In this document: positions 2,332 through 51,097 of the stretch, in pieces
Layout: every line of letters starts with the position of its first letter
Position numbering within the stretch: the first letter of the stretch is position 1
From: Candidatus Delongbacteria bacterium
Lineage (GTDB): Bacteria; JAGOEH01
DNA: 54,853 bases
Reading direction: 5' to 3'
Assembly: GCA_017997825.1 (NCBI GenBank)
Contig: JAGOEH010000002.1
Span: 1-54,853 of the forward strand
Translations under genes and position numbers: made by a program
The notes under the pieces: generated by a model
What the model saw: the letters and a program-made list of their open reading frames with translations, nothing else
Databases searched by the model: none
What the model was told of the DNA's origin: nothing

Positions 2332-2579
2332 CCCTATAATTCAAAACCGGCATCATTAAACCAAAAGAGCAAAGCGCTGAGGTGTGTTTTTTGGCCGATT
2401 CGGCCATGGGAGCGTGAGATCCGGTTTCAATCCGGATCTCACACGTACCGGTATCGGAATCCGTTGTTGAGCAGCGGATTAATATGGATCAACGACCACC
2501 AATCTCAAGCATGGGATGGTGGCAAAGGATATCCGCTTACCGAAGAGAATGTCTTGCGTCCGTCCGATCCGGTTCCGGT

Positions 2580-3916: not shown

Positions 3917-6106
3917 TTATTCCGGGATCGATGGGGCCGAAACAGGCAGAGTGAAATAGAAGGTCGATCCCTTTCCGATCTGGCTCTCACACCAGATACG
4001 GCCGCCATGGCGTTCCACCATATCCCGGCACAATACCAGACCCAGTCCGGTCCCCCGTTCATCCGCCGTGCCGATAGTGGAATAATTTCCGTCCACTTTG
4101 AATATTCTAAGCAACCCATCCTGAGAAATCCCAATTCCGCTGTCCCGGATGGAGATCAAACTATCATGATTTTGGGGCCTGCCGTTGATCCAGACCGATT
4201 GTTCAGGATAACTGAATTTGATGGCGTTGGAGATGAGATTCTGAAGAATCAGCTGGATCATGTTCTGATCCGTCCAAACCATCATTCCGATCGGAACCTG
4301 ATTCACCAAGGCAATATCTTTGGCGGCCGCCTGGGTTTTCAGATAAGTGAGGACTGTTTTTACCACTTGATAAAGATTGATCTCTCCCGGATTAAACTCA
4401 ATTTTCCCCATTTGCAGCCTGGACCAGGTCAGGATATCCTCCAATAATTCCAATTGGCTTTTAGCCGCTTGATTGATCTCCTGACTGTACAATCGGATCT
4501 TTTCACGGGGCAGGGTTTCCGATTCCCGGTATAGCATTTCGGTCAGTCCCAGAAATGCGGTAAAGGGACTGCGAAGATCGTGGGAAATGATGGAAAACAG
4601 TTTATCCTTATTGGACAGGGTCATTTTAAGCGCGTCCTGAGAACGTTCCAACTGCTCTTTTTGCTGATTGATCAAATCGTTTTTTTCACTTAACAGCCGA
4701 TGGGCTGTTTTTTTGGCTCGGTATCGGGTATAGACCCCTGCTACCAGTAGTAAAGACAATCCCAACAGGGTCAGGATAAACCACTGAAACCGCTTTTCAT
4801 AAGCCTTTTCGCGGGTCAGATGGGCAATCTCATTTTCCCGGTGCTCCGTCTCGTACTGAATGTTGAGGGCGGAAATAAGCCGGTTTTTTTCAAGATTAAG
4901 GATGGTATCCTGAATGGTCTGTACTTTTTTCCGGTATTCCAATGCTTCCCGATAGTGTCCCAGGGATTGATGGATTTCCGAAAGATACTGGTAACTATCC
5001 TTGATCCTGGGTTTGGCCTGGATCTCCTGAGCAATGGATAAGGCTTCTTCCAGTTCGGCGATCGCCAGCCAAAAGTTGCCAAGACGCCCATCCACGTATC
5101 CCATAGCATTCAAAGTCTCCGCATACCCGTTTTTCGTCCCCGGCAGATTCCGGTAAATTTCCCACGCCTTCTGATAAAATGTTCGAGCTTTGGCAAACTG
5201 AAGCTGGTCCCGATAAAGACTACCCAGATTGTAATAGGCAAAGGCAATACTGACGGGATTATTAACCTTCTCGCTGATTTGCAGACTTTCCGTAAGGTAC
5301 TGTTCCGATTTCTGGAATTCAGCTTTTTTGGCATAGATAGAACCCAGTTTCGAGGTAATGATGGATCGGAAATTAAAATCCTGTTCCGAATCAGCCACAT
5401 CCAGGGCCATTTCCAAATAAGACGCCGCCTGATCATAATCCTTCAGGTAGATAAAAACATCGGAAAGATTGGCCCGGGTTAGAGCCAGCGATCGTTTATT
5501 CCCTAAGGTCTCTTTCAGACGGAGGGATTCCAGATAGAATCGAATCGAGGTATCATAATTTCCAAGATAGTAATTAACGATCCCCAAATCATTCGCATTG
5601 ATAGCCAATCGTTCCTTATCACCAATCTCCATAAAAACGGTATGGGATTTTAAATAGAATTCGAAGGCCCGGGTCAGGTTATCTTCATTGAAATAGTTTT
5701 GCCCCAAATAATTATAAACAATGCCCTCGCCGGTTCTGTTACGAATGGATTGATAGATATCCAAGGCTCTGAAATAGCAGAAACGTGCCGAATCAGCCCG
5801 TTTCCACTGGGCATGGTATTTGCCCATTTCTTTCTGGAGATCCGCTTCACCCTGAGGATAGCTGAGCGCTTTGGCAAGATTGATCCCCGTCTCGCCATAA
5901 TGCCGGGCCAGACTTGAATCATCGCTCCGATAAGCATAAACCAATTGAATCAGGATATCGATCTTGTCTCGTCCCTGAACCTCATTCAGTCTTGATTCCA
6001 GGTTGCGAATCCGGGATTTGTCCAGCTTGACCTGAGTCATAGTCAGTAGGCTTTGCGCCGGCAACCACGACGAAAATATCAGATAAATCCATAGAAACTT
6101 TTTCAT
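3917..6106 (-). CDS. Sensor histidine kinase with periplasmic TPR array (SP-TPR-TM-coiled coil-HisKA-HATPase)
   Basis: Kinase motifs: H-box SHDLRSPF, N-box NLISNAIKFS, G1 DSGIGIS, G2 GTGLGLVLCRDMVERHGG. There is a signal peptide MKKFLWIYLIFSSWLPAQS, many TPR-like units and one TM helix (WFILTLLGLSLLLVAGVY). I chose the ATG at 6106 because it opens the signal peptide. An in-frame ATG at 6154 is an alternative. Confidence 0.85.
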   Translation of the reverse strand: MKKFLWIYLIFSSWLPAQSLLTMTQVKLDKSRIRNLESRLNEVQGRDKIDILIQLVYAYRSDDSSLARHYGETGINLAKALSYPQGEADLQKEMGKYHAQWKRADSARFCYFRALDIYQSIRNRTGEGIVYNYLGQNYFNEDNLTRAFEFYLKSHTVFMEIGDKERLAINANDLGIVNYYLGNYDTSIRFYLESLRLKETLGNKRSLALTRANLSDVFIYLKDYDQAASYLEMALDVADSEQDFNFRSIITSKLGSIYAKKAEFQKSEQYLTESLQISEKVNNPVSIAFAYYNLGSLYRDQLQFAKARTFYQKAWEIYRNLPGTKNGYAETLNAMGYVDGRLGNFWLAIAELEEALSIAQEIQAKPRIKDSYQYLSEIHQSLGHYREALEYRKKVQTIQDTILNLEKNRLISALNIQYETEHRENEIAHLTREKAYEKRFQWFILTLLGLSLLLVAGVYTRYRAKKTAHRLLSEKNDLINQQKEQLERSQDALKMTLSNKDKLFSIISHDLRSPFTAFLGLTEMLYRESETLPREKIRLYSQEINQAAKSQLELLEDILTWSRLQMGKIEFNPGEINLYQVVKTVLTYLKTQAAAKDIALVNQVPIGMMVWTDQNMIQLILQNLISNAIKFSYPEQSVWINGRPQNHDSLISIRDSGIGISQDGLLRIFKVDGNYSTIGTADERGTGLGLVLCRDMVERHGGRIWCESQIGKGSTFYFTLPVSAPSIPE

Positions 6107-6225
6107 GATAATCGAGACCCGATCAGGGTTAAGTTTAATGATCCGGCCAATCATCGAGGATTAATCGATCGGCGGCCGCATCATCCAAACGGATTGTTTT
6201 TACTATTAAACACGATCCTTGATTC

Positions 6226-6255
6226 TAAAATAAAATAAATCAGCAGGATTGTCAA
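6226..6255 (-). promoter_or_regulatory. Weak candidate promoter for the TPR histidine kinase
   Basis: Minus strand: TTGACA (6255-6250), 18 nt, TATTTT (6231-6226). The spacing is long and the -10 is poor. Confidence 0.25.
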
Positions 6256-6328
6256 CTATTAATCCGTTCATTCCGAAAACCGGTTCGGATCAATCTGCTA
6301 CACTCTTGAGCTGTTTGTAAAAACCATC

Positions 6329-6357
6329 TTGACAGCCGGGCAAAAAAATTGTATGGT
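6329..6357 (+). promoter_or_regulatory. Candidate sigma-70-type promoter for apbE (predicts a leaderless mRNA)
   Basis: TTGACA (6329-6334), 17 nt, TATGGT (6352-6357). The first ATG of the ORF (6364) lies 7 nt after the -10, and no Shine-Dalgarno motif lies in between. Confidence 0.45.
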
Positions 6358-16839: not shown

Positions 16840-18669
16840 TCAATCGATGGGATCAATTTTATGGAAATATCCTCCGGCATCCGAGATGCAAACGCAATGC
16901 CTGCCGTTGGTTTTTCCGTAATACATAGCCTGATCGGCCCGGTTGACCAATTCCTCCATTTTCAGACCCGATATAGCTTCCGCCACCCCAAAGGTCATGG
17001 TAATCCGGAGCGGCAGATCCCGGTAAACGAATTCAGCCCTGCTGAGTTCCGACTGAATCCGCTGAGCCATCATAATGGCATGGTCCATCTCAGTTTCGGG
17101 AAGGAGAATCAGAAACTCTTCCCCTCCCCAACGGGCCAGACTGTCTTGTTTCCGAATCTGGTTCCGGATGGTGAGCGACGCCATCCGGAGGACATAATCA
17201 CCGCCATCATGACCATACCGGTCATTGAACTCCTTAAAGTGATCAATATCAGACAGAATCAGGCAGAATGGCTGCCCATATCGGTCATAGCGGTTCATTT
17301 CATCCGTCAGTTTTTCCAGAAAATCACGGCGGTTGGACAACCCGGTCAGGGGATCATGCCGGGAAAGCTCATCCAGTTTATTTTTAGCAGCTTCCAATTC
17401 CCGATTGGTTCTGACCTTCAGCCGATACCCTTTCCAGATCAGGAAAACGACGGCCAGAGAAAGAATCAGGCTGACCAGCAGAAAATTCCGCATCATTTGC
17501 TGTTTTCGATAGCGTAATTGCTGGATCGCCTCATTTTTCTTCAACAGCTCGATCTCGCGTTCCTTTTTTTCCGATTCATACCGGGCTTGCATCTGGGCAA
17601 TCTTTTCGGTTGAGGTTTCAGAAAAAACCTCCCGATAGGTTTGATAGGCCTCGTACAGAGCCAGATATGCCGAATCGTATTGCCCCGCTTGGAACCAAGA
17701 TTCGGCTTTAGTTTGCAAAACATCCTTCAGCTCAGTTTTCAATCCCAGATTCCGGCAGATGGTTTCCGCCTCGCGATAGTAACCCAGGCTCATGCTACGG
17801 TTTCCAAGATAATAATAAAGGCCGGCGATATTCATCAAACTGAGGGCATATTCGCGGGAGGGATTCTTGAGCAGACGGGAAGCGCGTTTATAATAGTTCA
17901 GGGCCTGGGTATAGTCTTCCATATTCTGATAGATAATTCCAAGGTCATTACTGCAATAGGCTTCCAATCCTTTATCCTTTAAACGGACAGCCGTTTTCAA
18001 AGCCTGTTTTTTATAATCCAGAGCTCCCGGATAATCATTTTCCAGTATCCTGAGGTTTCCCAGTTCATTCAGCGCATTCCCGACCGCGGATTGATTCTCG
18101 ATTTTATCCTGCAGATCAACAATCCTTTGATAAAAGGTCTCGGATTGTTTCAGATTCCCCCGTAACCGGCTGAGATATCCTTGGTGCTGGAGTGCAACCG
18201 ACATCTGATCATAGTGATTGCCGGCTTCCGACTCCTCCAGGGCTTTCAGACTAAAGTGAACGGCTTTTTCATGAGAGGAACTCAACAGATATTGATAGGC
18301 GGTCCGATTCATCAGATCGATCCGATCTGTTTCATCCCAGAGGATTCCTTCCAGGGCCAGGCATTCTTCCATAATCTGCGCCGCTTTTTCCGGCTGTTTG
18401 AGCCGGATGTACACCTCAGACAGATTCAGCAGGGCCTTTTTCTGCTCCGGAATCAAGGCCAATTTACGGGCCAGCTCCACAGCAGCCAAGGCATAGTCCA
18501 GGCTCTTCTCCGGAAGACTATCGCGCAGATTATCGACCTGTCGGTTCAGATCCGCCAATGTTGCAGTATCATCCGTCACAATCGAATCAAAGCCTGGATT
18601 CTGGGCTTCGATTCGATTAAAAACCATCACTCCAAGGACCATCGCTACAGCGAACAGCATCCACCGCAT
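16840..18669 (-). CDS. Diguanylate cyclase with periplasmic TPR array (SP-TPR-TM-GGDEF)
   Basis: Signal peptide, TPR units, TM helix NFLLVSLILSLAVVFLIW, and a GGDEF domain with active site RWGGEEFLILLP. An RKQD (RxxD I-site) lies five residues upstream of GGEEF. Confidence 0.88.
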   Translation of the reverse strand: MRWMLFAVAMVLGVMVFNRIEAQNPGFDSIVTDDTATLADLNRQVDNLRDSLPEKSLDYALAAVELARKLALIPEQKKALLNLSEVYIRLKQPEKAAQIMEECLALEGILWDETDRIDLMNRTAYQYLLSSSHEKAVHFSLKALEESEAGNHYDQMSVALQHQGYLSRLRGNLKQSETFYQRIVDLQDKIENQSAVGNALNELGNLRILENDYPGALDYKKQALKTAVRLKDKGLEAYCSNDLGIIYQNMEDYTQALNYYKRASRLLKNPSREYALSLMNIAGLYYYLGNRSMSLGYYREAETICRNLGLKTELKDVLQTKAESWFQAGQYDSAYLALYEAYQTYREVFSETSTEKIAQMQARYESEKKEREIELLKKNEAIQQLRYRKQQMMRNFLLVSLILSLAVVFLIWKGYRLKVRTNRELEAAKNKLDELSRHDPLTGLSNRRDFLEKLTDEMNRYDRYGQPFCLILSDIDHFKEFNDRYGHDGGDYVLRMASLTIRNQIRKQDSLARWGGEEFLILLPETEMDHAIMMAQRIQSELSRAEFVYRDLPLRITMTFGVAEAISGLKMEELVNRADQAMYYGKTNGRHCVCISDAGGYFHKIDPID

Positions 18670-24700: not shown

Positions 24701-26886
24701 TTCGGATCCTGGTAATGGTTCTGACTGAAGAGGCCTAGTTCCAGCAGATTCATGGTCAGCGCCATTCCCTCACTGACATGGGCATTTCGGGCAGGACCAT
24801 TGGCGATCGGAGAACCGTGATGAGGCGTTCCCAAGGTGATAATCAGCTTGGTTCGCTTGAGATAACCATGCTCCTGAGCCGTTGACCGGGCGACTAAGCC
24901 CCCCATACTGTGGCAGAGAAAGACAAACTTCTTGCCGGTGAATCCATCACTATAACCTTCCCAATTCAACAACTCCTGGCTTAACCGGTCTCCTAGTTGG
25001 TCCACACTATACCAGTTGGAGTAATAATTTACGTAATAGGGCTTGTAACTAGCTTTCAGTTCTTCATCTTGGGCCAGATACGCCAGAAAATTATCCCAGT
25101 AGCCGGGACTGGGGACACCTGGAGACTCTGAGGGTCTCCAGCCATGCACCAGCAAAAGAGGCACCCGATCTTTCAAGGGACTGAAATCGGCCTCATAAAT
25201 CGTCAACGGCAAAGCGATAGCTGTGGTTACAAACCGACTGTAATCCGACCATTGACTGGTATCCGCACCGGTTATCCCCCTCACCCGCCAATAATACTGA
25301 GTATTGAGCTCAAGATTGTCAACCCGGACCGAACTGTCAGGGATATTCGATATCTCCCGAACCAAAGTCATAAACGATGATTGATGCGAAACCTGGACAT
25401 AGTAAACAGTATTGGTATCGGCACCATAATACAACCAGCGCAGACGGGGATTGGTCGAGACATCACCGGCACCATCCTGGGGCAGTACCGGGATCGGTTT
25501 AGAGCGTTCTCCCAGAAAATTGAATACACTATCGGTTTCGATCACCAGTGCTATCCGGGTAACCGGATCAAACTGGAAACCATATTTATACGGAGTCACA
25601 CTATAAGTCCCATATTGCAGCACATCAAAATGATAATCCCCGGAGACATCGGTGATTGCAGTATCCAAATCCGTACCGGTCAGAATGACCGTTACACCCG
25701 AAATAGGGGTATCGGCTGCTGCACCCAAACGGAGCCTCGGGTTTTCTTGATTGCTTCCCGATCCCATCATTAACGATAACGTTTTAAGGGTAATTTTACC
25801 ACTGATCCGGACATAGTTCTGGTAGGCCTCAAAATCCTGGGTTTGATTCTCTTCCGGGGCCATCAGCTCGATATAAGCCGGTAAAAAGGTATAATCCTCC
25901 TTGTATGCGGTCAGTATATAACTACCGGTCGCGTTAACCGTAAAGCTGTAATTCCCCGAAACATCGGTCAGGACGGTATCGTTGGTCGTTCCCACCAGCA
26001 TCATCCGAACATCCGCCAGGGGGGCGCCGCTGAACGTCACCTGTCCGCTGACGATAATCGCATCCAGACTGGCCGCAAAATTCTGGACCTGGTTGTTAAA
26101 GGGATTCAAAAACTCCTTCGTCAGCGGATCAAAGGTGTATCCCGCTTTGGCAGGAGTCACCAGATAATACCCACCGGCCCCCACCGAAAAGGAATACTGA
26201 CCGGTATGATCGGTTACCAGCGAATCATTGTTGCTGCCGGTCAAATGAACCGTTACCCCGGATAACCCATTTCCATCCAGGGTAATTACACCACTGACGG
26301 TTAATGTATTGATGGCAGCCGTAAAATTAAAAACCTGATCCCCGGTGATGGCGGGGAAGAGATTGGAAATTGGAGTAAAGGTATACCCGCTTTTTTGTGG
26401 GGTCACCGTATAGGTACCGCCATAGGAGACAGTAAATTCATAAGCCCCGGTCAAATCGCTGGTGACCGAATCGATCAGTGAACCGCTCAGATAAACAGTT
26501 GCACCCGGCAAAGGATTTCCATCGACAGTCAGTAGGCCGCTGATCTTCAGAGGAACCCGATCGGCGGTAAAATCCAGCGTATCCAGATCTTGAACAGCGG
26601 AAACAAATAGGTGATTGGTAGGATCAAAATTATAACCGGCCAGACTCGGCGTGATAGTTCCACTGGCCCCGGCTGATACCGTAAAACTATAATGCCCGTT
26701 TTCATCCGAAGTGGTCGAACTGGTGGAACCCGGAAAACCGACTACAACACAACTAAGCTGAACCCCGGCTAATCCGGTTCCATCATGAGTGATCGTTCCG
26801 CTATAGGTATAATTTAATTGAGCCTGTGTCGAATAAACCATACAGACCAATCCTACTAAAACCAACAACCATCGACAGAATCTCAC
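18793..26886 (-). CDS. Giant (2,697 aa) T9SS-secreted multidomain protein with embedded lipase-like alpha/beta-hydrolase
   Basis: GTG start with GGAAGG upstream, and signal peptide MRFCRWLLVLVGLVCMVYSTQA. Domains in order:
- five ~80-100-aa CarboxypepD_reg/Cna-B-like repeats (aa ~24-460)
- FN3-like modules
- a hydrolase with LLLVHGW / CHSMGG / NNDGIVP / NYNHQD
- Ig-like modules
- a ~650-aa unassigned core
- more FN3 modules
- acidic thrombospondin-type-3-like Ca-binding repeats (DTDGDRIWDDVDPHP, NPDTDGGGLSDGDEVD)
- a T9SS CTD (NYPNPFNQSTVIRYQLP...GVYFYQLK). Confidence 0.85.
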   Translation of the reverse strand: MRFCRWLLVLVGLVCMVYSTQAQLNYTYSGTITHDGTGLAGVQLSCVVVGFPGSTSSTTSDENGHYSFTVSAGASGTITPSLAGYNFDPTNHLFVSAVQDLDTLDFTADRVPLKISGLLTVDGNPLPGATVYLSGSLIDSVTSDLTGAYEFTVSYGGTYTVTPQKSGYTFTPISNLFPAITGDQVFNFTAAINTLTVSGVITLDGNGLSGVTVHLTGSNNDSLVTDHTGQYSFSVGAGGYYLVTPAKAGYTFDPLTKEFLNPFNNQVQNFAASLDAIIVSGQVTFSGAPLADVRMMLVGTTNDTVLTDVSGNYSFTVNATGSYILTAYKEDYTFLPAYIELMAPEENQTQDFEAYQNYVRISGKITLKTLSLMMGSGSNQENPRLRLGAAADTPISGVTVILTGTDLDTAITDVSGDYHFDVLQYGTYSVTPYKYGFQFDPVTRIALVIETDSVFNFLGERSKPIPVLPQDGAGDVSTNPRLRWLYYGADTNTVYYVQVSHQSSFMTLVREISNIPDSSVRVDNLELNTQYYWRVRGITGADTSQWSDYSRFVTTAIALPLTIYEADFSPLKDRVPLLLVHGWRPSESPGVPSPGYWDNFLAYLAQDEELKASYKPYYVNYYSNWYSVDQLGDRLSQELLNWEGYSDGFTGKKFVFLCHSMGGLVARSTAQEHGYLKRTKLIITLGTPHHGSPIANGPARNAHVSEGMALTMNLLELGLFSQNHYQDPNRYDMHWDNFDALLDYTSYPNESNLWLNTLNTDFSIDDRLIVYAGRIPGQLITPPYVNSVAMYNVGSYVLNHEFGLNNDGIVPYSSAVFEGHHPFKTYAFDNYNHQDIVMGKGDGALFLSVRNDLMEVAPLNILSPNGGESVQNGTQCEIRWTSPQYVHHVDLYYSVDSGQSYIELIRNKPTQARDSYQFTVPDTNSFNCLIKIVNSDDPEEYDLSDSRFRMYYNWIRLTAPTADTVWERGDPCLIRWDYNGIGEAVRIEYEDPGHDYQLTIAENTDLSLRQYSWTIPMEVPLTDQAQIRLQILNLDRDYQDLSPAFAVYPVRGVAIIQPNGGDSLVLDSVFTLRWRSQGNIEALRVALIDSNQTVTWYDTIPNTAANEYQGNTEWIVPHVHGRGFSLRLEDSRRNQIADISDSSFQIRYRKMELSAPTNGSNETSCGFNFVVKGRTINYNYLLAISTDSLFRDSVRYYDHGISQIPVYLLRSGRTYYWKAKCRLDSWDSYWSDTWSVTTLMRQPSSWCRGHTPKHEAPDVHVSASFIWERSCYADHYRLVLGLDSLMTRIELDTLIPDTLNFLEYSRDTICFQYHLKSPGSRYWWYVVPVNSQGQADPPGRSYQFTCIDSCFTVNGVTICPESWSVIEDVGYRSQGMVKIGDRTIIQNGYVIVNQERTAITSGEGLVRFRTDGDTLNIFSGQLTMPSSTILMQAGSQIRLSSDNLGALFNSRLVVKGIDTKNSLVYLNYTDSLIDLSMEGLKQDDGSDIRCKAVKDFAIKSDGHIEGKLYAKTKEGTSDWLILNIAEIQIFTNKLQLKGNINSAFMIGQVDHFMIGDKFAPAPALKAKSLYLRITADRKDIDFCRETGDDPDCDDLKTAIPDIRVADWKFEGPKVGFSYKTDIKKWCLFGKATLIFPFQLRKLVTGGLTGGLGACFLKASLELYSQSPYMHDVSGGMEGCFSVPVAPFVFFTGFWGHLTLLAKNEKVTGISGGGTLSFDVGTGQFPPLVRGVPGFNINTKGILDLTGELRLFGFITMSKVAFSLDASQKNKTVLYGKMYFESPPYYPWVKADVEGKIEILSTSQANRSNLVDRMYFTGTSLFQIPGKVVTIMGLNLPPGDIVLQGYKIEVGEFKSGGKSMGKGVQAGVCIFTLSYPTCECGCTPWYKPWKWDWDCSWVHKQIWATAFVPIQSGKPRLGTNFYDLVKFSKRTYLRRRGNLESMSSYIRQFASDGNGDTLHIYVPPSSSEMTFFSLKYYSEKRPSLVFLNPSETHGYWSDKMIEDSPGSVTDSGFVVGVPTEPGVWKILVDSIQSSSDYLLTIAGLNTPPKLTIQSTVRNSDTLYTIGYQAYDADDEATITFYYTENDSTKGLLINPSELIERDTTGLYQWNVRGVKNGTYRIYGIISDAANPLVKTFYDQPVVIGHHDVPAVPRDFRVIRDTAEMIFCWQEDPYSEQYQIRWGTQSGIYTDTITGITGHQYPFFPETDSTVYYAVIAAENINGDWSPFSAELSFSFNTIELDTLPPAIPSKPVVKAVCSVADNPDSSLTLPYVVISWTRSSDAAGYVITYRPTESEQENSFDVGQSDSLTITGLTSGTTYGFSLQAYDSVYNYSSASQTVTADLFPPDDRDGDGMNDSQEIRYFGDIDYTNDSMGDEDEDELTNGYELEHGTNPMNHDTDGDRIWDDVDPHPTSSIDTDNDLMPDDWERYYELDLPDEDPDRDRLSNLNEYRYGTDPLNPDTDGGGLSDGDEVDRGRDPLNAKDDPWDGLPAAELKSFTARWENDSIGLQWVTRDENFLKGFNLYRKQSHQNGYERINPDLIVPPADSGSGHGYSYQDGPINPDSTYTYWLESLGEFENADSLGWVEVAAVTAINEPTQPDIKEFDLEQNYPNPFNQSTVIRYQLPIDERYPSYSVELEIFNLLGQRVRSLVRANQPSGRYQVIWNGMNDQGRAVKSGVYFYQLKSNKFCTKRSLLLLR
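24337..25179 (-). other. Lipase/esterase-like alpha/beta-hydrolase domain inside the giant protein (aa ~570-850)
   Basis: An oxyanion-hole-type LLLVHGW, a nucleophile elbow CHSMGG (Ser660 codon 24907-24909, checked by reverse translation), then NNDGIVP (Asp) and NYNHQD (His). This order fits a Ser-Asp-His triad. HSMGG resembles the Bacillus LipA / PGAP1-like pentapeptide. Confidence 0.6.
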
Positions 26887-36718: not shown

Positions 36719-37861
36719 TTATAACAATTTATCGGTATTCAACCGGTAAAGTTTGATGCAGCGATGTGCCGGATTCATATCATTCATAGGCTCCGCTTCA
36801 TTGATGATGTCACGCTCAATAAACAAATTATTCCAGGTTCCTATGAAAAAGTGATTCGATTTTGGGATATGAGAATAAATCTTTTTTTGCTGGGTATCAA
36901 TCAGATCATAATATGTCATAATCATTCCATCGGATGCAGTACGGTTGATCGTGTCGGTCACCATATCTCCTTCTCTTTGCCAAAGATCGATCAGCAGATA
37001 ACGATCTTCAACAAAATAGAGTCTGAAAATGCAATTCATATTTAACCAGTTGCGTTTATATTTTTCTTCACATTCTTTTTCCGAGACGGAATCGATCTCT
37101 AAAAATTCATAGGGAAAATAAGGATTGGTATAATATCCTATACTCAAATCCCCCACCCAATGGCGGATTTTATATTCCTGAGTGGAACACAGAAAAGATT
37201 GACCATTGGAAAAAGCGTGTTGGATGGACATATGATGGGTTTTACAGCCCTTATACTTGTTGTTTTCCGATTCGGTATAGATGCTCCACAATGGAGTCAG
37301 GCTGTCGCTGGTTAGATCATAATGGGCAAACAACAACCCAGTGGGTTCAAAAATCATATTAATCAAGAATAGTTCAGGACCCATTTCATAAAAGCAATGA
37401 AAAATCCGGTCTGTTTTTTTCAGGGAAATCGATTTAATGAACTGATTGGTAAAGGAATAACAATTGATAGCTCCTTGGGGCCAGGTCAATACCAAGACCA
37501 TTGAATCATTGATTTGAGTCCAGTGATTGTTTTTAATCTGAGTCTTTCCAAATCCATTTTCACCAATTCGGTTAAGGTATTCACCTCGACGATTAAATAC
37601 CATAGGAAGAGGGTCCATCTCCCCCACCGCAACAATAAATGAATCATTCATCAGCACTCTGTCAAACTTAGATATCACAGATTCCGATGTACACTGCAAA
37701 ACAAAACTATCAACCACACAGAACAGATCACGACCATCTTTGATCTGTTCTGTATTACCTTGAACCAATGGAATCATGACATCCTTCCGCTGATCAGGCA
37801 CTCCTCTCCGAACACATCCAATCAATAAGTAGAACAATCCAAGAACCAGTAGCCGTTTCAT
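36719..37861 (-). CDS. 6-bladed beta-propeller family lipoprotein, paralogue B
   Basis: Canonical lipobox LLIGC, a beta-rich body, and a C-terminal NPAHRCIKLYRLN signature. SD GGGGAGGG. AT-rich. It has the same family look as 31919-33013 but is strongly diverged. Confidence 0.5.
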   Translation of the reverse strand: MKRLLVLGLFYLLIGCVRRGVPDQRKDVMIPLVQGNTEQIKDGRDLFCVVDSFVLQCTSESVISKFDRVLMNDSFIVAVGEMDPLPMVFNRRGEYLNRIGENGFGKTQIKNNHWTQINDSMVLVLTWPQGAINCYSFTNQFIKSISLKKTDRIFHCFYEMGPELFLINMIFEPTGLLFAHYDLTSDSLTPLWSIYTESENNKYKGCKTHHMSIQHAFSNGQSFLCSTQEYKIRHWVGDLSIGYYTNPYFPYEFLEIDSVSEKECEEKYKRNWLNMNCIFRLYFVEDRYLLIDLWQREGDMVTDTINRTASDGMIMTYYDLIDTQQKKIYSHIPKSNHFFIGTWNNLFIERDIINEAEPMNDMNPAHRCIKLYRLNTDKLL

Positions 37862-38208
37862 GCTTCCCTCCCCTTGTGAATGAATTACAGAATCACAGCC
37901 GGAAAAACTCCATATTATATTAATTGATAATTAAAACTCAATTAATCCGGATCCGTCAATAGATTATCATTCGACACCTATTTTCAACCCAGACTTGATG
38001 AAAAATTATGTTGCATAGTGTCAATCAATGAATCTAAAAATCTTCTCAACAACCAAAAGCGATAGCTTATAATCAGGAAAAAACAATCCGGAAAATGATT
38101 AAGTACCGAAAAAAATAGAAATCCGAATCCGGGAACAGATGATAAGTTCATTGTGACGAGATTACTCCAGTTAAATCTCCACTTTGGTATATATTATATC
38201 ATGGATTC

Positions 38209-38236
38209 AATATACTCGCTTTTTTCAGAATGTCAA
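38209..38236 (-). promoter_or_regulatory. Orphan sigma-70-type promoter candidate ~350 nt upstream of propeller paralogue B
   Basis: Minus strand: TTGACA (38236-38231), 16 nt, TATATT (38214-38209). It has the same architecture as the promoters at 2304, 16751, 31695 and 53142. Confidence 0.4.
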
Positions 38237-38335
38237 TGCCTTTTCAAAGAGCATTAACCTCCCCCCCCTAAAAACTTCAATCGAAGCTCACGGTTAATAT
38301 CATTGATAAGGAAGAGAGCTCGCTTTGAAACCGTC

Positions 38336-40114
38336 TCATTTTCTCAGCTCCGGATAGATTTTCCGGGCACAATCGGGACACAGACTATGGCTGAAGGAGG
38401 CTTCGGAATGAGCGCTGATATAAGTCTCAACCTCCTTCCAGTATCCTTCATCATCCCGGATTTTTTTGCAGTTGGAACAAATCGGCAGTAATCCATTGAG
38501 TGTTTTGATATTATTGAGAGCCGTTTCCAGTTCTCCGGTTTTCTGCTGTAGATCGTCCCGCTGGCGGGCAATCTCCTGGTTACCGGATTGTAATACAACA
38601 TTCATTTTTGTTTTTACCCGGTTAACATAGATCAGGATTCCTGAAAACCCTATTGTTAGCACCAGAACCAACCCTCCCAGGATAATAGTCCAATGCTGCC
38701 GTTCCAATTCGGCATCCTGGAGTTGTTGGGTTCCCATTAATCTTAGGTTTTCCTTTTCCTTCTGCTGGGTTTGATATTTAATCTGAAGATCCAGAATAAT
38801 CCGGTTATTGCTTTCATTGAACATACTGTCACGGATCGTATCATAGATCAAATACTGCTGATGAGCGATCTTCCACAATCCCATTTCCTGGTAGATCTCC
38901 GATAGTTTAAGGTAATTGTCCCGCATCAGGGCTCGCTGTCGGATAGCCCCCGCAATTTCGATGCTTTTCCTGAGATTCTCAATAGCCGAATCATACTGCC
39001 GCTTTTTCCAGTAACTGGTTCCGATGTTCTTCAGGGCGTTAGCTTCCCGCTCGCGATTATTTGATTTTCGGGCTTTAATTAAGGCCTGCCTGGCCAGTTC
39101 CAATGCCTGATCATAATCCGCTTTTAGATTATAAATATTGGCCAGTGCGTTCAGATCCAGAATTATTCCCCCATTATCAGGTACATCCCGTTCATAAACC
39201 TTCAATGACACATTATAATAATAAAGTGCGGAATCATAATTCTGGCTGATTTCCCAAGCATATCCCAAATTATGGTAGGTATATCCGGTAACCAGGATAT
39301 CATTTCGGATGGGTTTACCTTTCTCCAAGGCCTCAAGAAACGTACTCATTCCCGACTCAATTTTTCCCCATTCCAGATAAACACGTCCAATATTATTAAG
39401 CGTCAGGCATTCTCCCGAAATGTCCTTTAGTTGTTGTCGGATTTTCAGGGATTCCGAATAGTATTCCAGGGCTTTTTCATAATAAGCCCACTGCCAGTAG
39501 ATAACTCCGATACTGTTAAGAATGGACGCTCTCGGCTCAGGATCCTTCAGACTGGTTGAAACGGCTAGGGCGTGGTTGAGGCAGATCAGGGCACTGTCAT
39601 ACTCACTCTGGCGCCACAGGAAGAGACCTTTCTCGCGTAAGGTTTTAGCCAACCGGAGCGAATCACGGCATCTGGAATAATACTTAACCGATTGGGTAAA
39701 TGTCAGCCGAGCTTTTTGAGTCTGGTCAGTTTTATTGTACAGCCGGGCTAATTGATAGGTAATCTTTGCCATCATTTCCATATAGTTGGAATCCGTAGCC
39801 ATGATCATAGACTGGTGGTAAAGCTCTTCGGCCAAGGCAAATTCCCGGCGATAGTCATGAAAGATCCCCCGTTCGATCAAAGCAGCAGTCCGGCTGCGAT
39901 GGTCATTCAACCGATCCGCCGCTTCGGTTGCCAGATTGATATACGACAATACACTGTCTGACTTTCGATTATTGTATTCTTCCGCCAATTGCAGATAAAT
40001 CGACAACGATGCTTTGACATCGGATGTATCGATCAGGGTAATCAGACTATCACACCGATCCCGAGCTTCTATCATTACTGAAAATAGAATAATCCATAAA
40101 AATATTTTATTCAT
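38336..40114 (-). CDS. Periplasmic-TPR sensor with TM, coiled coil and C-terminal four-Cys (CxxC...CxxC) module
   Basis: Signal peptide MNKIFLWIILFSVMIEA, about 10 TPR-like units, TM helix WTIILGGLVLVLTIGFSGILIYV, a coiled coil, then LPICSNCKKIRDDEGYWKEVETYISAHSEASFSHSLCPDCARKIYPELRK. No catalytic output domain is present. Confidence 0.8.
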   Translation of the reverse strand: MNKIFLWIILFSVMIEARDRCDSLITLIDTSDVKASLSIYLQLAEEYNNRKSDSVLSYINLATEAADRLNDHRSRTAALIERGIFHDYRREFALAEELYHQSMIMATDSNYMEMMAKITYQLARLYNKTDQTQKARLTFTQSVKYYSRCRDSLRLAKTLREKGLFLWRQSEYDSALICLNHALAVSTSLKDPEPRASILNSIGVIYWQWAYYEKALEYYSESLKIRQQLKDISGECLTLNNIGRVYLEWGKIESGMSTFLEALEKGKPIRNDILVTGYTYHNLGYAWEISQNYDSALYYYNVSLKVYERDVPDNGGIILDLNALANIYNLKADYDQALELARQALIKARKSNNREREANALKNIGTSYWKKRQYDSAIENLRKSIEIAGAIRQRALMRDNYLKLSEIYQEMGLWKIAHQQYLIYDTIRDSMFNESNNRIILDLQIKYQTQQKEKENLRLMGTQQLQDAELERQHWTIILGGLVLVLTIGFSGILIYVNRVKTKMNVVLQSGNQEIARQRDDLQQKTGELETALNNIKTLNGLLPICSNCKKIRDDEGYWKEVETYISAHSEASFSHSLCPDCARKIYPELRK

Positions 40115-40397: not shown

Positions 40398-40934
40398 TTA
40401 TTCCGGTGGATTTTGTTGCCGGTTTTGTTTATAAAGCTCTCGGATTCTCAACAGGCAGGGGTAGTAAATATCCGATTTGAAATCGGGAAAGGTCCAGGGG
40501 AAAACCGTAAAGCTTCCTTTTCGGTAATATAAGGTCAGATCGGCATATACCCCGGAATGGAGGTGAATCTTCTGCCCTCCGAACTTCATCGAAGCCAACA
40601 CGATCTTCTGGTAATCCAGGTAGCCCGGATCCAGATTGAACTGCCGATTTCCGTTTATCATCCCTTCCTCCTCGATCCGGTTGGTCACCCGTTTGATCGA
40701 AGCGATCGCTTCCGGGGGAATCAGGGCCTGAAACGAAATGAATCGCCGGTACAGCGGCTCTCCCATCTCCTTTTGATAATAATCAGTCAAGCCGAATTCA
40801 TAATCAGCACTCTGATAATCGATTTTACCCCAATGGAGGATCAGACGATCCATGATATGATTCCATTCGGTCCGGCCATTGGTAAGGATTGCCATGAACA
40901 GCTTGACCGGATCGACGCTAACGACCTGGGCCAT
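40398..40934 (-). CDS. DUF4416 family protein
   Basis: VDPVKLFMAIL...LTDYYQKEMGEPLYRRFISFQALIPPE...FNLDPGYLDYQKIVLASMKFGGQKIHLHSGVYADLTLYYRKGSFTVFPWTFPDF follows the DUF4416 pattern as I remember it. I prefer the start at ATG 40934 (MAQVV...). The longer track ORF would overlap the upstream gene by 140 nt, whereas this start overlaps by 17 nt. Confidence 0.7.
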   Translation of the reverse strand: MAQVVSVDPVKLFMAILTNGRTEWNHIMDRLILHWGKIDYQSADYEFGLTDYYQKEMGEPLYRRFISFQALIPPEAIASIKRVTNRIEEEGMINGNRQFNLDPGYLDYQKIVLASMKFGGQKIHLHSGVYADLTLYYRKGSFTVFPWTFPDFKSDIYYPCLLRIRELYKQNRQQNPPE

Positions 40935-41739
40935 CCAGAACGCTCCTGGCTTCTTCCCAGATTGCAGGTGGAATATTGAAAAACTGCTGAATGGCCTGAA
41001 CCGTGGGAAGATGGATTTTGGTGTTTCTTTGGCTGGAATAGTGCTTGACGAAATCATCCCGGATATAGATCCGTCCGGGCTGCTGCCGGTCGATCCGGGT
41101 CAGGCAGAGGTGTCTCATCGATTTTTGATAAAAGGAATCTTTCCAATATAAAAGAAAATCATTCACATCAAGTGGGTGTAAGATAAATGAATAGCGGAAT
41201 TTTTTTTGATCCCGGGAAACCGAATACAAACGGTATTGCTGATTGGAGCTGCAAAACTCCAATTCCAGCCGGGTATCTTCATCCTGGATCCGGATTACGG
41301 TTTCCGACCGGATCGGAAGCGGGGTCGAAATTAGATATCCCGGATCCACCAGATAATCCTCATCCGCCATCCGCAGAACCAATCCGCAATGGACGGCCTG
41401 TCCCCATGTCATATCCATCACAATCGGATCGGCTTGATACCCCAGACGATAGAGAATGCTCCACAAGAAGTAAGTCAGTGAATAACAGGTACCACCCAGA
41501 TGATTCTCTAGATAATCGACCCATACTTCCTCAGGCATCCGCAATCGATCCCATTCCCCCTTGATCTGGTTAAATTTGATGATTTTACTCAAATTCTCGT
41601 AGGGCAGATTGGAGAAGGCTTTGAGAACCCGTTGCAACATATTATTATCGGGAAGATGAACGGGGATTTGAAAATGACGCAGAAAGAGTTCGGCCGTGGA
41701 ATGATGCTGATCCAGACCGAATCGAGGATGAATGATCAT
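40918..41739 (-). CDS. Arylamine N-acetyltransferase (NAT)-fold protein
   Basis: LPYENLSKI, a catalytic-Cys context GGTCYSLTYFLWSILYRLGY, His in AVHCGLVL and Asp in YLVDPGY. This is the Cys-His-Asp order of the NAT family. The ATG overlaps the upstream stop (ATGA, 41736-41739). Confidence 0.7.
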   Translation of the reverse strand: MIIHPRFGLDQHHSTAELFLRHFQIPVHLPDNNMLQRVLKAFSNLPYENLSKIIKFNQIKGEWDRLRMPEEVWVDYLENHLGGTCYSLTYFLWSILYRLGYQADPIVMDMTWGQAVHCGLVLRMADEDYLVDPGYLISTPLPIRSETVIRIQDEDTRLELEFCSSNQQYRLYSVSRDQKKFRYSFILHPLDVNDFLLYWKDSFYQKSMRHLCLTRIDRQQPGRIYIRDDFVKHYSSQRNTKIHLPTVQAIQQFFNIPPAIWEEARSVLDGPGR

Positions 41740-47432: not shown

Positions 47433-49751
47433 TCAAAAATAGTGTGTATTCATGGCTTGATTGGGATACAATGGGAAATGGATACAGCACATCATCCTGC
47501 CATTTTCCTGCGGTTCGATTTTCAAATGACCATTGTGAATTCTAATAATCTCCCTGATCATAATCATCCCCTCCCAGGACAGATACTCCGTGCTATCGGG
47601 ATGCACCTGATTCATCAATTCAGGGTGAAAAGACAGCTCCAACTCCAACCAGTAGAGGCTTTTCTGCAATTGGATCAAAATAACGGAATTTTCGGCGCCA
47701 TGGTTGATAGCTGCGTATATCAATAATTCCAGCAAACGGTTCAGTAGCTCTTTATCTCCGGAAATAACCGGTAAAATCATATCCGCTTCCGGGTATTCTA
47801 TCCGGATATTCTTCCCTTCGGCTTCCTCCTTCACCACGCGCTCGACACTCTGCAGCAGATGATCAAACCGGATCTTATCCTTATAGGGTTTGAAAAACGT
47901 TTTCATCAGAAACAGACTGGAAATCTCACTATACACATACTGAATCTGGTTCAGGGATTTCTGGATCTGCTGATAAAGCGACGGCTGGGCGATTTCTTCC
48001 CGATCGAGGTGCAGGGTCTCAAAAAAACTCTGCAGCGCATTAAGTGGATTTTTGAACTGAGTCAAGGCCCGCTGAAACACTTTAATCTTAAGGGTCTCTT
48101 CATCTCGAAGGTAATAAAAATGAAGGATCCCCGGCAGCGTATTGGACACAAAATCATCCAGTAATTCCAGGATTTGCTTATCAATCGAGGGACTGCTCTG
48201 TTCTTCCGACCCGTGGATGGTGATTTCGGTGGCTTGACCATAGGGCGCGAACAGGGTTTTATGAAAAAGAATGGGATCGGTCGGCAGATGGGGTGTCATC
48301 TCGGTACTGGTGAGCGGGGTAATCGAACTGTTTTCCAATTTATAATCGGACTTGATGGTATCCAGGACAAATGATGAGTCAGGATGATAAGCAACAAAGA
48401 GATCCGGCCCAATCCTTATGCAAACCCTTGAGATATAAAGCAAGCGGGCAATCAAATCAACAAAGTTTTTCCAGAATTGATGCGGAGCCAGGGTTTGCTT
48501 CTTAATCAAGTGATTCAATGACGATCCGATGATCAGTTTGAAATTGCTGACATCCAGCATCTGATTCAGACGAGTCAGAATATAGTCCTGAGTGTACTCG
48601 GGCTGTAAGGCCTGACTTTGTTTGGCGATCTTTACCCCGAGAATTGAATTGATGATTTTATTCTGATTGAAAGGTTTGAGAATATACTTTTCAATACCGA
48701 GGGAACGGGCATAAAAAGCTTCCGATTTGGATATATTAATTCCACTGATGGCGATAATCGGAATAGTCCTCAGGTGGGGTTCACTTTTCAGAAAGCGGGC
48801 CACCTGAAATCCGTTCATGACCGGCATGGTAATATCCAGAATAATGACATCCGGCAATTCTTTAGCCAGAATTTGAAGGGCGGAAAAAAAATCCTGGGCG
48901 ATCTCCACCAGAAATCCCTGATTTTTCAAGGTAAACCGGATTCCCTGCAGAAGGGTGATCGAATCATCAATGACCAATACCCGGCGGGCATTGATCAACT
49001 GAATATGGTGAAGAATCTTATAGACATAGGCCTCCAGAAGCGGCAAATTATCACGATCATTCACAAAAAATTCATTGATTCCGTACTCGAATCCGATATT
49101 TTTCAGATCGCTCTCATCCTCTTCAATCAAAGCCAGAATCGGAAGCTTATTCAGGTTTTCATCATTTCGGAGCCGGTTGATAAAGCGGAGCTTGTTTTGA
49201 TAATCCTCGGTCAGATCGATCAGAATCAAATGAGGTTGGATGGCCTCGATAATACTCCCCAGACTCTCCTGAAACCATGACTCATAAAGCTGGTAATGCT
49301 GGTATTTTTTAAGCGCCGCCTGAATAATATGCTGACGGATCTGGGAGTTGTCAACAATCAAAATCTTCTTGGTTTCATCCTGGGCACGTGAATTCAGAAT
49401 ATTGGATATAATATTGATCCCATAGGGAGAAACCAGTTCATCCATCGACAGAGCCGTATCAGTATAAATCAGATTCTCGGAAATCTGTTCAATATCGATT
49501 TCCTTTTGATAAACCATTACAATCGGAAGGAACCATTTTCGCCGAATCGCAATAATCGTGTCTTTATGCTCTTTTTCCAGAAAAACGTCCATGATCAGGA
49601 CGGCATGATCATACTCTTTCTGCTGCAGGACCTCCATCAAAAGGTCCAGATCATAAAAAACCTCGCAGGGGAAATGCACCGTTCGGATGAAATTCTCAAG
49701 AGTTGTCACATAATCCGATATGTCGCGGATATAGAAAAAAACCTTCATCAT
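47433..49751 (-). CDS. Triple receiver-like domain protein with degenerate histidine-kinase-like C-terminus
   Basis: REC3 is canonical (VLVIDDS...VIILDITMPVMNG...AISG...YILKPF). REC2 keeps the acceptor Asp (LILIDL). REC1 is degenerate. The C-terminal DHp-like helix reads LTQFKNPLNAL in place of SHELRTPL. The ATPase-like region has no DxGxG or GxGLG boxes. The ATG at 49751 overlaps the upstream stop (ATGA), and AAGGAGG lies upstream. Confidence 0.75.
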   Translation of the reverse strand: MMKVFFYIRDISDYVTTLENFIRTVHFPCEVFYDLDLLMEVLQQKEYDHAVLIMDVFLEKEHKDTIIAIRRKWFLPIVMVYQKEIDIEQISENLIYTDTALSMDELVSPYGINIISNILNSRAQDETKKILIVDNSQIRQHIIQAALKKYQHYQLYESWFQESLGSIIEAIQPHLILIDLTEDYQNKLRFINRLRNDENLNKLPILALIEEDESDLKNIGFEYGINEFFVNDRDNLPLLEAYVYKILHHIQLINARRVLVIDDSITLLQGIRFTLKNQGFLVEIAQDFFSALQILAKELPDVIILDITMPVMNGFQVARFLKSEPHLRTIPIIAISGINISKSEAFYARSLGIEKYILKPFNQNKIINSILGVKIAKQSQALQPEYTQDYILTRLNQMLDVSNFKLIIGSSLNHLIKKQTLAPHQFWKNFVDLIARLLYISRVCIRIGPDLFVAYHPDSSFVLDTIKSDYKLENSSITPLTSTEMTPHLPTDPILFHKTLFAPYGQATEITIHGSEEQSSPSIDKQILELLDDFVSNTLPGILHFYYLRDEETLKIKVFQRALTQFKNPLNALQSFFETLHLDREEIAQPSLYQQIQKSLNQIQYVYSEISSLFLMKTFFKPYKDKIRFDHLLQSVERVVKEEAEGKNIRIEYPEADMILPVISGDKELLNRLLELLIYAAINHGAENSVILIQLQKSLYWLELELSFHPELMNQVHPDSTEYLSWEGMIMIREIIRIHNGHLKIEPQENGRMMCCIHFPLYPNQAMNTHYF

Positions 49752-51097
49752 AGTAATTGACACCTCCTTTGGACATCCTGCAATTGCTGACGAACCTGAC
49801 TGATGAGATGATCGTAGGAACAGGGCATCATGAGTTTGAAGTCGCGTTTACGGAACACTCCATCGATCAGCACCGATTCGACCTGCCGGGGATCAGCGCT
49901 ATAGACCAGATAAGACGCAATACGTTCTTCAGCAAATGGTTGCATTGAGAATCCGGCTTGAGGATTCAGAATAACAGCATCGGCTTTCAGTCCGACAGCG
50001 ATACGACCAATTTGGTGATCTCGGTGCAGGGATCTGGCCGGAATGGCCGTAACCATCCGCAGCAAATCATCAGCCCGGATAGCGTCAGGACCGAGTTTGA
50101 CCTTCTGGAGCAGGGCCGCGGATCGAATCTCGTTCCAGATACTCAATGTATTACTGCAGGCGGCTCCATCTGCTCCAAGGGTGACTGGAATTCCCATTTT
50201 CATCATCCGCACCACCTGAGCGATCCCCGATCCCAGCTTGAGGTTAGAGGAGGGACAATGCAGTACGGTGGTACCGCTCTGCCGGATAAGATCAAACTCT
50301 TTATCGTCCAGCCAGATACAATGAGCCAACAACAGGGATGAATTCAGTAATCCCAGATTGCCTAAATATTCGACATTCTCCATGCCGGTTTCCTGCCGGA
50401 TCAGTTCGATCTCCCCGGTGTTCTCAGAGGCATGGGTATGGATCATCAACTGATGATGATCAGCAAACTCCCCGATCGATTTGAGCATTGAACGGGAACA
50501 GGTTACGGCAAACCGCGGATTAAGAATATACTGAAGGCGACCGTTCTGATAATCATGCCATTGTTTCATCAATTCGAGGCTTTCATCCAAAGCGGTTTCG
50601 GTTTCGGAAACCAATCCCGCTGCTCTTGGATTACGGGCCATATCCATCATCATTTTCCCGGAATAGCCCCGGATTCCCATATCGGCCATAGCCTGAAATA
50701 CCGCATCGGTATGATGGTTAGTGGCCATGTCCACGATGGTGGTGGTTCCGGAATCAATGAGTTCGGCCAATCCCAAAATCGATGACCAGTAAAGAGATTG
50801 ATAGGAATGGCAGCTTTCCATCGGGAGAATGGTCTGGTTCAGCCACATCAGTAGAGGAACGTCATCGGCCAGGGATCGAAAAAGGGTCTGGCACAGATGG
50901 ACATGGGTCTGGATCAAGCCGGGTAATAGATAGCGATCCGATCCGTCCACCACATCGGCTTCAGGGGCAAGAATCCCCGGTTCGATCCGGCTGAATCGGT
51001 CTCCTTGGATCAGAATATCGGTCGGCTCCGACAACCGGATCGGATCCTCGTCCACCATCAGATACCGGATATTTCGAATCAGGATCGTTTGGTTCAT
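49748..51097 (-). CDS. ATZ/TRZ-family amidohydrolase (MtaD-like nucleoside/base deaminase candidate)
   Basis: Metal ligand motifs LPGLIQTHVHL, HTHASEN, LAHCIWL and TLGADGAACSN; 449 aa. The substrate cannot be assigned from sequence. The ATG overlaps the aminotransferase stop (ATGA, 51094-51097). Confidence 0.75.
   Translation of the reverse strand: MNQTILIRNIRYLMVDEDPIRLSEPTDILIQGDRFSRIEPGILAPEADVVDGSDRYLLPGLIQTHVHLCQTLFRSLADDVPLLMWLNQTILPMESCHSYQSLYWSSILGLAELIDSGTTTIVDMATNHHTDAVFQAMADMGIRGYSGKMMMDMARNPRAAGLVSETETALDESLELMKQWHDYQNGRLQYILNPRFAVTCSRSMLKSIGEFADHHQLMIHTHASENTGEIELIRQETGMENVEYLGNLGLLNSSLLLAHCIWLDDKEFDLIRQSGTTVLHCPSSNLKLGSGIAQVVRMMKMGIPVTLGADGAACSNTLSIWNEIRSAALLQKVKLGPDAIRADDLLRMVTAIPARSLHRDHQIGRIAVGLKADAVILNPQAGFSMQPFAEERIASYLVYSADPRQVESVLIDGVFRKRDFKLMMPCSYDHLISQVRQQLQDVQRRCQLL

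Follow-up and report, generated by a model that had tools for sequence, protein, structure and literature searches.

A conserved 50-residue four-cysteine module at the output end of a TPR sensor from Candidatus Delongbacteria and of other bacterial signalling proteins

Described systems that resemble the C-terminal module

Bacterial signalling proteins are usually interpreted by their output domains, which may be kinases, cyclases, phosphodiesterases or DNA-binding domains. A gene (38336..40114, - strand) in a stretch of 54,853 nucleotides of Candidatus Delongbacteria DNA (GenBank assembly GCA_017997825.1, contig JAGOEH010000002.1, positions 1 to 54,853; the whole of this stretch is called the window here) encodes a 592-amino-acid protein that consists of an ordinary modular bacterial sensor scaffold and, at its C-terminal end, a 50-residue four-cysteine (C4) module that is a new, undescribed output domain. 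The scaffold has a TPR array, a motif preceding the transmembrane (TM) helix, the TM helix itself and a helical linker in common with TPR-TM sensor histidine kinases (FimS type, NF053520) and with TPR sensors that end in GGDEF, SpoIIE or cyclase domains; in those proteins the linker leads to a catalytic domain, whereas in the window protein it leads to the 50-residue C4 module and to nothing catalytic. The tips of methyl-accepting chemotaxis proteins (MCPs) are comparable as a functional analogy only, being strongly conserved modules that end a dimeric coiled coil on many unrelated sensors. The conservation of the MCP tip reflects docking to a common CheA/CheW hub. The tip is, however, a helical hairpin without metal, and has no sequence or fold relation to the C4 module.

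Several small cysteine-rich domains have individual features of the module. The DksA/TraR C4 zinc finger (PF01258) also combines a coiled coil with a small Cys4 domain of two CxxC motifs, and DksA/TraR acts by protein-protein contact with RNA polymerase; the DksA coiled coil, however, is not a dimeric signalling helix but a hairpin formed within one chain, and the CxxC motifs of the finger are spaced by 17 residues compared to 29 in the C4 module. ZAS domains (HxxxCxxC, zf-HC2) resemble the module in that a His occurs shortly before the second CxxC, but the ZAS motif is H-x3-C-x2-C in an N-terminal anti-sigma helical bundle whereas the C4 module has H-x2-C-x2-C and is C-terminal. Rubredoxin (CxxCG...CPxCG) is brought to mind by the spacing of 29 residues and the CPxC of the module, but has a beta-rich Fe(Cys)4 fold; the C4 module is predicted to be beta-alpha-alpha-beta-alpha, and no structural neighbour was found for it in the PDB by Foldseek.

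The closest description in the literature is that of HalOD2, the output domain of response regulators in a few halobacteria, which has a helical HalX-like part and two CXXC motifs 20-25 residues apart and is an uncharacterised, predicted zinc finger (Galperin et al. 2018; PMC5847659). Both HalOD2 and the C4 module are REC-linked C-terminal modules in which a helical segment is followed by two highly conserved CXXC motifs. The C4 module differs in its spacing, which is fixed at 29 residues, in being bacterial, in its distribution over more than ten phyla and in its many input types; the two are set apart here by description, not by sequence.

The window protein and the C4 family

The features of the sensor gene and its product are as follows.

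38336..40114 (-): TPR-TM-coiled-coil-C4 sensor gene, 592 codons plus stop (translation; homologues L026 and L008)
40061..40114 (-): N-terminal hydrophobic leader, residues 1-18, MNKIFLWIILFSVMIEAR (read from the sequence)
38855..40024 (-): TPR array, approximately residues 31-420, the presumed sensor (Pfam TPR_12 2.8e-31, TPR_1 7.8e-18 and other TPR families)
38624..38692 (-): single TM helix, residues 475-497, WTIILGGLVLVLTIGFSGILIYV (peak of 2.6 in a Kyte-Doolittle 19-residue window; aligns with the TM helices of the GGDEF and histidine kinase paralogues)
38489..38623 (-): cytoplasmic linker resembling a coiled coil or signalling helix, residues 498-542 (heptad pattern; AlphaFold helix)
38339..38488 (-): C4 module, residues 543-592 (profile search, core identity, AlphaFold)
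38468..38479 (-): first CxxC, Cys546 and Cys549, 100% conserved in 260 modules; in the model, at the end of strand 1 and in the first turn of helix 1
38438..38440 (-): Trp559, at the start of the central helix; invariant in homologues
38387..38389 (-): His576 (FSH), three residues N-terminal to Cys579; invariant in homologues, replaced in several copies of tandem proteins
38369..38380 (-): second CxxC, Cys579 and Cys582 (CPDC), invariant in homologues; in the model, after strand 2 and opening helix 3

The translation, the Pfam matches, the hydrophobicity and the heptad pattern agree with the original prediction, made from the DNA letters, of a TPR protein with one TM helix, a coiled coil of approximately 45 residues and a four-cysteine end. 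The predicted boundaries of the module and the cysteine spacing (CxxC, 29 residues, CxxC; LPICSNCKK...CPDC) match exactly, and the ORF (open reading frame) list and translation give the C-terminal end as ...LPICSNCKKIRDDEGYWKEVETYISAHSEASFSHSLCPDCARKIYPELRK up to the stop codon, and also as ...LNGLLPICSNCKKIRDDEGYWKEVETYISAHSEASFSHSLCPDCARKIYPELRK. In a six-frame translation of the 54.8-kb window, this tail is the only CxxC-x20-40-CxxC. Scans of the whole protein against Pfam and NCBIfam return TPR families only, at approximately residues 16-390, and neither finds a kinase, cyclase, phosphodiesterase or DNA-binding family in it, as had been claimed. The N-terminus is short and hydrophobic (MNKIFLWIILFSVMIEA), and the leader is probably a signal peptide or a signal anchor that would put the TPR array outside the cytoplasm; of the signal peptide predicted earlier, the hydrophobic leader is present, and peptide and anchor are both left as readings of it. 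Residues 475-497 are the sole strong hydrophobic segment of the protein, and the basic stretch NRVKTK that directly follows this second hydrophobic segment, together with homology to TPR-TM-kinase sensors, points to an extracytoplasmic TPR array. The stretch between the TM helix and LPIC fits the a/d heptad pattern that is found family-wide, and AlphaFold predicts a helix at residues 2-17 of a 70-residue construct comprising the end of the linker and the C4 module.

The C4 tail is a genuine, very strongly conserved and widespread bacterial domain. A search with the last 70 residues found 38 short proteins with 56-75% identity to the tail, and these first 38 homologues share the same P, I, C, C, K, R, W, H, C and C without exception. 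Of 1.84 billion proteins that represent 50% identity clusters, 24,448 match a tail profile of 57 columns at E<=1e-3, and 20,049 of them still do so at E<=1e-10. A pattern scan of one genome per species found at least 600 stretches, and 597 of the 600 listed were confirmed by tblastn; the genome-locus results given below are those of the best 80 of these stretches, which encode 81 C4 proteins. The best 80 loci are dominated by Desulfobacterota, and the others belong to Acidobacteriota, Anaerolineae/Chloroflexota, Bacteroidota, Gemmatimonadota, Nitrospirota, Verrucomicrobiota, Spirochaetota, Calditrichota, Hydrogenedentes, Lentisphaerae, Sumerlaeota and more, a span of over ten phyla. Cultured carriers among the matches include Geothrix paludis SG195 and Desulforhopalus sp. 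IMCC35007, and Desulfuromonas sp. DDH964 is another. The 39-residue core of the module (P-I-C ... C-x-x-C) has a mean identity of 72% and a minimum of 54% among 80 proteins from these phyla, and the parts of the same proteins other than the core are not alignable. Near-invariance is seen at several positions described as exposed and non-ligand (K, R, D, D, G, Y, W, E, Y), in the stretch R-D-D-x-G-Y-W and in His and Tyr residues, and the first helix carries a conserved KKIR stretch. With a mean net charge of -1.5 and a positive charge in only 21 of 240 modules, the module is slightly acidic and hence not DNA-binding-like.

The module sits at the output position of sensors and response regulators. 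Among the best 150 representatives, the chain continues for a median of 16 residues beyond the last Cys, and in 78 of the 81 genome-encoded proteins 7-31 residues come after the module. The domains upstream of it are PAS (38), MASE6 (17), REC (12), HAMP, GAF, PocR, dCache and Reg_prop/Y_Y_Y in the 150 representatives, and PAS (23), REC (18), Reg_prop, Tll0287-like, dCache, TPR (3), GAF, VUPS, MASE3 and HisKA_7TM in the 81 proteins, two censuses that bear out the earlier statement that similar tails close PAS, GAF and REC proteins. Many members are polytopic in the membrane, and many have 5-7 TM helices and a short linker. The module and classical outputs are mutually exclusive in the sample: with the window's own kinase, GGDEF and sigma-54 activator/helix-turn-helix regions as queries, none of these was found in 230 C4 members. 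Family-wide, hydrophobic positions at -15, -12, -8, -5 and -1 relative to the invariant Pro form an a/d heptad that continues unbroken into LLPIC. In PAS members the heptad helix is preceded by a DITERK motif, which normally precedes the DHp helices of kinases. With a heptad helix directly before it, the position of a kinase or cyclase, occurrence after REC and exclusion of other outputs, the module has the positional features of a helix-coupled C-terminal output class, which is a functional grouping and no homology family. The window protein had been regarded as the most minimal context of the module, but smaller C4 proteins exist, namely REC-C4 (approximately 200 amino acids), GAF-C4 (162 amino acids) and coiled-coil-C4 (approximately 90 amino acids).

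A few modules are followed by more protein. Some stand inside tandem fusions of two [membrane sensor-C4] units. In a membrane protein encoded at 1122-2351 (+) of locus L038, C4 precedes a hemerythrin HHE domain (Pfam 5.4e-24), and in an REC-C4 protein encoded at 5551-6357 (+) of locus L007 it precedes 72 residues that look like a winged helix-turn-helix by eye and match no Pfam family.

Two paralogues encoded in the window serve as comparators.

3917..6154 (-): TPR-TM sensor paralogue ending in HisKA and HATPase_c, 745 amino acids (Pfam)
16840..18669 (-): TPR-TM sensor paralogue ending in GGDEF, 609 amino acids (Pfam GGDEF 3.4e-44 and TPR)

The C4 protein aligns with both paralogues over the TPR array, the conserved pre-TM motif and the TM helix; beyond that helix, the alignment covers the linker of the histidine kinase paralogue and the first part of the linker of the GGDEF paralogue. 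One TPR-TM scaffold thus carries three different C-terminal modules (kinase, GGDEF and C4) within 55 kb. The H-box phospho-acceptor of the kinase paralogue (His525) is approximately 48 residues past the TM helix, and Cys546 of the C4 protein is 49 residues past its own; in the alignment, His525 falls opposite Ile545/Cys546. Distant homologues, with 23-31% identity in the TPR part, end in histidine kinase, SpoIIE, adenylate cyclase or LuxR domains. Thus, the paralogues, the distance from the TM helix and the distant homologues all place C4 where a classical output would be, in the same helical register. Two homologues have the same leader-TPR-TM-coiled-coil-C4 layout and 30% identity to the window protein from end to end: one of 624 amino acids from Calditrichales (L026; E 1e-71) and one of 626 amino acids from Gemmatimonadaceae (L008; E 2e-84). 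Both were recovered via genome loci, a word-indexed full-length search having returned TPR relatives only. Loss of the cysteines from orthologues had been named as evidence that would count against a functional module, but both homologues keep all four, together with the His and the Trp.

The C4 module is embedded in two-component circuits, as indicated by the 18 REC-C4 proteins among the 81 and by histidine kinase neighbours at 17 of the 80 loci. When the 693 neighbouring ORFs of these loci were clustered, histidine kinases were the sole recurrent neighbours other than C4 proteins, and a histidine kinase gene is often immediately upstream of the gene for REC-C4. Among the 55 neighbours that lie on the same strand within 200 bp, Pfam identified REC (11), HATPase_c (10), PAS and HisKA, and no other recurrent family. 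Three stand-alone coiled-coil-C4 genes have no surroundings in common, and apart from the two-component genes no recurrent, locally encoded partner gene was found at these three loci or in the set of 80.

Predicted fold and candidate functions

The C4 tail is predicted to fold autonomously as a domain of approximately 45-50 residues. AlphaFold2 models built with the family alignment have a pLDDT of 83.6 for helix plus module (70 residues) and 90.4 for the 51-residue module alone. The predicted fold is beta-alpha-alpha-beta-alpha: a strand (LPIC), a helix from the first CxxC, a helix (WKEVETYISAHS), a strand (FSHS) and a helix from the second CxxC. The two strands lie next to each other, and both CxxC motifs occur where a strand turns into a helix. 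From this layout of secondary structure and the invariance of the cysteines, the four Cys are inferred to converge on one metal site. The spacing had been likened to that of a zinc ribbon or treble clef, and two invariant CxxC knuckles (Cys546/549 and Cys579/582) do provide four potential ligands; however, the 51-residue model has just two short strands and begins a helix at each CxxC, and is not recognisably either fold. Tandem fusions of two [sensor-C4] units occur among the representatives (P0042, P0043, P0045, P0057, P0064), and in several of them one copy lacks the His and mostly or fully keeps the Cys pairs (FSECLCPEC, LSSGLCPEC, FLESLCPDC, FEQEECPDC); the second Cys pair is altered in one copy of P0057 (LSNTKCNNCC). 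The loss of the His from copies that keep their Cys pairs suggests that this invariant residue may be functional rather than a metal ligand.

No characterised domain was matched in Pfam, NCBIfam, the PDB, Foldseek or the literature, in agreement with the earlier description of the module as uncharacterised. Searches of Pfam and NCBIfam at E<=10 with the whole protein and with the tail found no significant family in the tail, only insignificant knuckle matches (zf-C4pol 0.014, DUF3039 0.026, Zn_ribbon_HMPTM 0.041), and the 38 tail-only proteins have zero precomputed Pfam domains. Searches of PDB sequences with the tail and with the tail profile gave no relevant match, the best being irrelevant proteins at E=0.04-0.1. 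Foldseek found nothing at E<=0.001 with the 70-residue and 51-residue models against the PDB or with the 51-residue model against BFVD, its sensitivity being low for a domain of 51 residues. Full-text literature searches returned no description of the C4 module, the nearest being the analogous archaeal HalOD2. Membership in the rubredoxin (PF00301), DksA/TraR (PF01258) and ZAS (zf-HC2, PF13490) families is rejected, none of them being matched by Pfam at E<=10; furthermore, the prediction between the knuckles is helical rather than rubredoxin-like, the spacing of 29 is not that of DksA/TraR, and the H-x2-C-x2-C motif at the C-terminus is not that of ZAS.

The explanation favoured here, with middling confidence, is that the tail acts as an output module that is coupled to the helix, dimeric and metal-binding, and that docks onto a single conserved target shared by the family. 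The extracytoplasmic TPR array would sense a ligand or partner, and the signal would cross the single TM helix of a homodimer and descend the parallel coiled coil of approximately 45 residues, unbroken into LLPIC. In the reducing cytoplasm, the two CxxC knuckles of each chain would bind one metal ion, probably zinc. The two C4 modules would stand side by side in the parallel dimer, where input could shift their relative position or exposure, and, being slightly acidic and without a catalytic domain, they might bind or release one conserved cytoplasmic target common to the family. By analogy with chemoreceptor tips that converge on CheA/CheW, this target would most likely be a protein hub. A shared rather than private target is favoured by the mean core identity of 72% across phyla and paralogues and by the lack of a local partner gene, since paralogous modules with private partners diversify and C4 modules do not. 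More tentatively, and at rather lower confidence, the family may constitute an unrecognised major output channel, neither enzymatic nor DNA-binding, through which thousands of PAS, GAF, Cache, MASE, TPR and REC sensors address one hub via a near-identical dimeric metal module; the logic of such a channel would be comparable to chemoreceptor-CheA/W coupling.

Several points weigh against this explanation. Metal binding, dimerisation and docking to a shared target are inferences rather than results, and the Cys4 geometry is deduced from the layout of predicted secondary structure alone. The high conservation could equally be explained by a small-molecule or metal-cluster ligand, or by tight folding constraints in a tiny domain. 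The missing conserved neighbour is negative evidence only, and the rare non-terminal modules indicate that the terminal position is not obligatory. The domain and context censuses cover the 150 best-scoring representatives and the best 80 loci, and are not a random draw from the 24,448. A further caveat is the accession PF28559.1 in the precomputed domain list of the window protein (P0107) and of TPR homologues without the tail; it is presumably a family of the TPR region, and cannot model the tail because it occurs on tailless TPR homologues and is absent from all 38 tail-only proteins.

Among the alternatives, it is unlikely that the module is a redox or metal sensor, acting as a thiol/zinc switch (like RsrA or Hsp33) or as a rubredoxin-like Fe(Cys)4 site, and thus an extra input or redox gate rather than an output. 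The four invariant Cys, the equally invariant His three residues N-terminal to their second pair, the rubredoxin-like spacing and CPxC second knuckle, the mostly anaerobic lineages of the best 80 loci (Desulfobacterota, Nitrospirota, Anaerolineae) and the fusion of one member to a hemerythrin domain are consistent with such a role. However, no rubredoxin, zf-HC2 or other redox domain is matched even at E<=10, the model is helical between the knuckles, and a pure metal site would not need the many nearly invariant non-ligand surface residues; REC-C4 and PAS-C4 proteins would be input-only, without an output, and the module also occurs in metagenome-assembled genomes assigned to the aerobic lineages Gemmatimonadaceae, Chthoniobacteraceae and Bryobacteraceae. 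A zinc-finger nucleic-acid binder, which would make the C4 proteins one-component or response-regulator transcription factors or RNA regulators, and the window protein a membrane-tethered regulator like ToxR or CadC, is improbable. The absence of an enzymatic domain, the conserved KKIR of the first helix and the likeness to Gal4-type regulators of a small metal domain placed after a dimeric coiled coil would suit this function, and HalOD2 is predicted to bind DNA or RNA (PMC5847659); but DNA binding is not the first choice because the module is acidic, it is like no DNA-binding family or structure, and many members have 5-7 TM helices and a short linker only. Near-identical modules on dozens of unrelated sensors would also imply the same binding site, unlike paralogous transcription factors.

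Nor is it probable, to a similar degree, that the module is a mere structural cap or dimer clamp on proteins that act through their coiled coils or sensor domains, for example by forming mixed oligomers that modulate histidine kinases. The first CxxC is in the same register as the H-box of the window's kinase paralogue, some short members are called COG4191-type histidine kinases by JGI because of the preceding helix, and histidine kinases are the sole recurrent neighbours. On the other hand, a structural cap would rarely keep such identity across phyla, with exposed charged and aromatic residues that hardly vary, the kinase beside REC-C4 is explained as a phosphodonor, and HisKA is undetected in the tail region at E<=10. 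A receptor role, in which a nucleotide second messenger or another small ligand would bind at the interface of two modules, is very improbable. Cyclic-dinucleotide sites typically contain Arg, Asp and aromatic residues, which R-D-D-x-G-Y-W and the nearly invariant His and Tyr might supply, and extreme conservation fits an invariant ligand, but no known c-di-GMP or cAMP binding motif or family is matched, and a sensor joined to a ligand receptor alone would still be without an output. The notion that the tail is an artefact, either a cysteine pattern that arose by chance or what is left of a histidine kinase gene after a frameshift, is refuted; nothing was found to support it, though the TPR part does resemble TPR histidine kinases. 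A chance motif is rejected given the number of homologous representatives and the uniqueness of the tail in the six-frame scan. The same architecture in two other phyla, with full-length homologues, the family-wide C-terminal position of the module, the lack of HisKA and HATPase_c in the protein and in 230 members, and the 474-bp spacer (37862-38335) after the gene, which contains no ORF of more than 55 amino acids and no kinase remnant, lead to rejection of a truncated kinase, a possibility that the original prediction had named as one that would overturn it.

Surroundings of the gene and significance of the family

The C4 gene is flanked by spacers of 283 bp and 474 bp, with a DUF4416 gene on one side and the gene of a 380-amino-acid protein (36719-37861) on the other, and neither neighbour was found to be linked to the C4 family elsewhere. 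The 380-amino-acid protein has a hydrophobic N-terminus with a Cys, lipoprotein-like by eye, and a weak match to six-bladed beta-propellers. In the 474-bp spacer, a minus-strand site (38236..38209) has an 11/12 sigma-70-like match (TTGACA-16-TATATT) directed towards 36719-37861, and no terminator-like site was found directly after the C4 stop codon. The DUF4416 ORF as listed (40398-41057, -) overlaps the upstream N-acetyltransferase-like ORF (40918-41739, -) by 140 bp; its true start is probably further downstream, since the Pfam match begins at residue 50. Elsewhere in the window, a 776-amino-acid protein (47433-49763, -) with a receiver at residues 262-374, and with approximately 260 residues before it and 400 after it that have no Pfam match, is another response regulator with unannotated flanks. 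Two large proteins are encoded at 18793-26886 (-; 2,697 amino acids with CarboxypepD_reg, SdrD_B, fn3 and a C-terminal FlgD_ig-like domain) and 13465-16569 (-; 1,034 amino acids with an SBBP/NHL beta-propeller and a type IX secretion sorting domain). Given where type IX secretion occurs, the sorting domain hints at an FCB-group bacterium as the source of the window. Scans of the window for Rfam families and tRNAs found none, and its valyl-tRNA synthetase (ValRS) gene had no megablast match to plasmids.

Because no Pfam or NCBIfam model, similar structure or paper was found for the C4 module, the output of these sensors and response regulators is invisible to annotation, and more than 20,000 representative clusters in more than ten phyla end in this 50-residue module instead of a usual output. 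The window is a natural control set, in which one TPR-TM scaffold occurs with kinase, GGDEF and C4 ends. Its C4 gene, which had been put forward as a clean test case, is a good illustration of the module rather than the best test case, for the host is uncultured and smaller REC-C4 proteins with an adjacent kinase are available in other genomes. The module is tiny, extremely conserved and often located beside a histidine kinase, which makes the question of its function directly testable; a partner or ligand found in one cultured host could assign a function to the whole C4 family.

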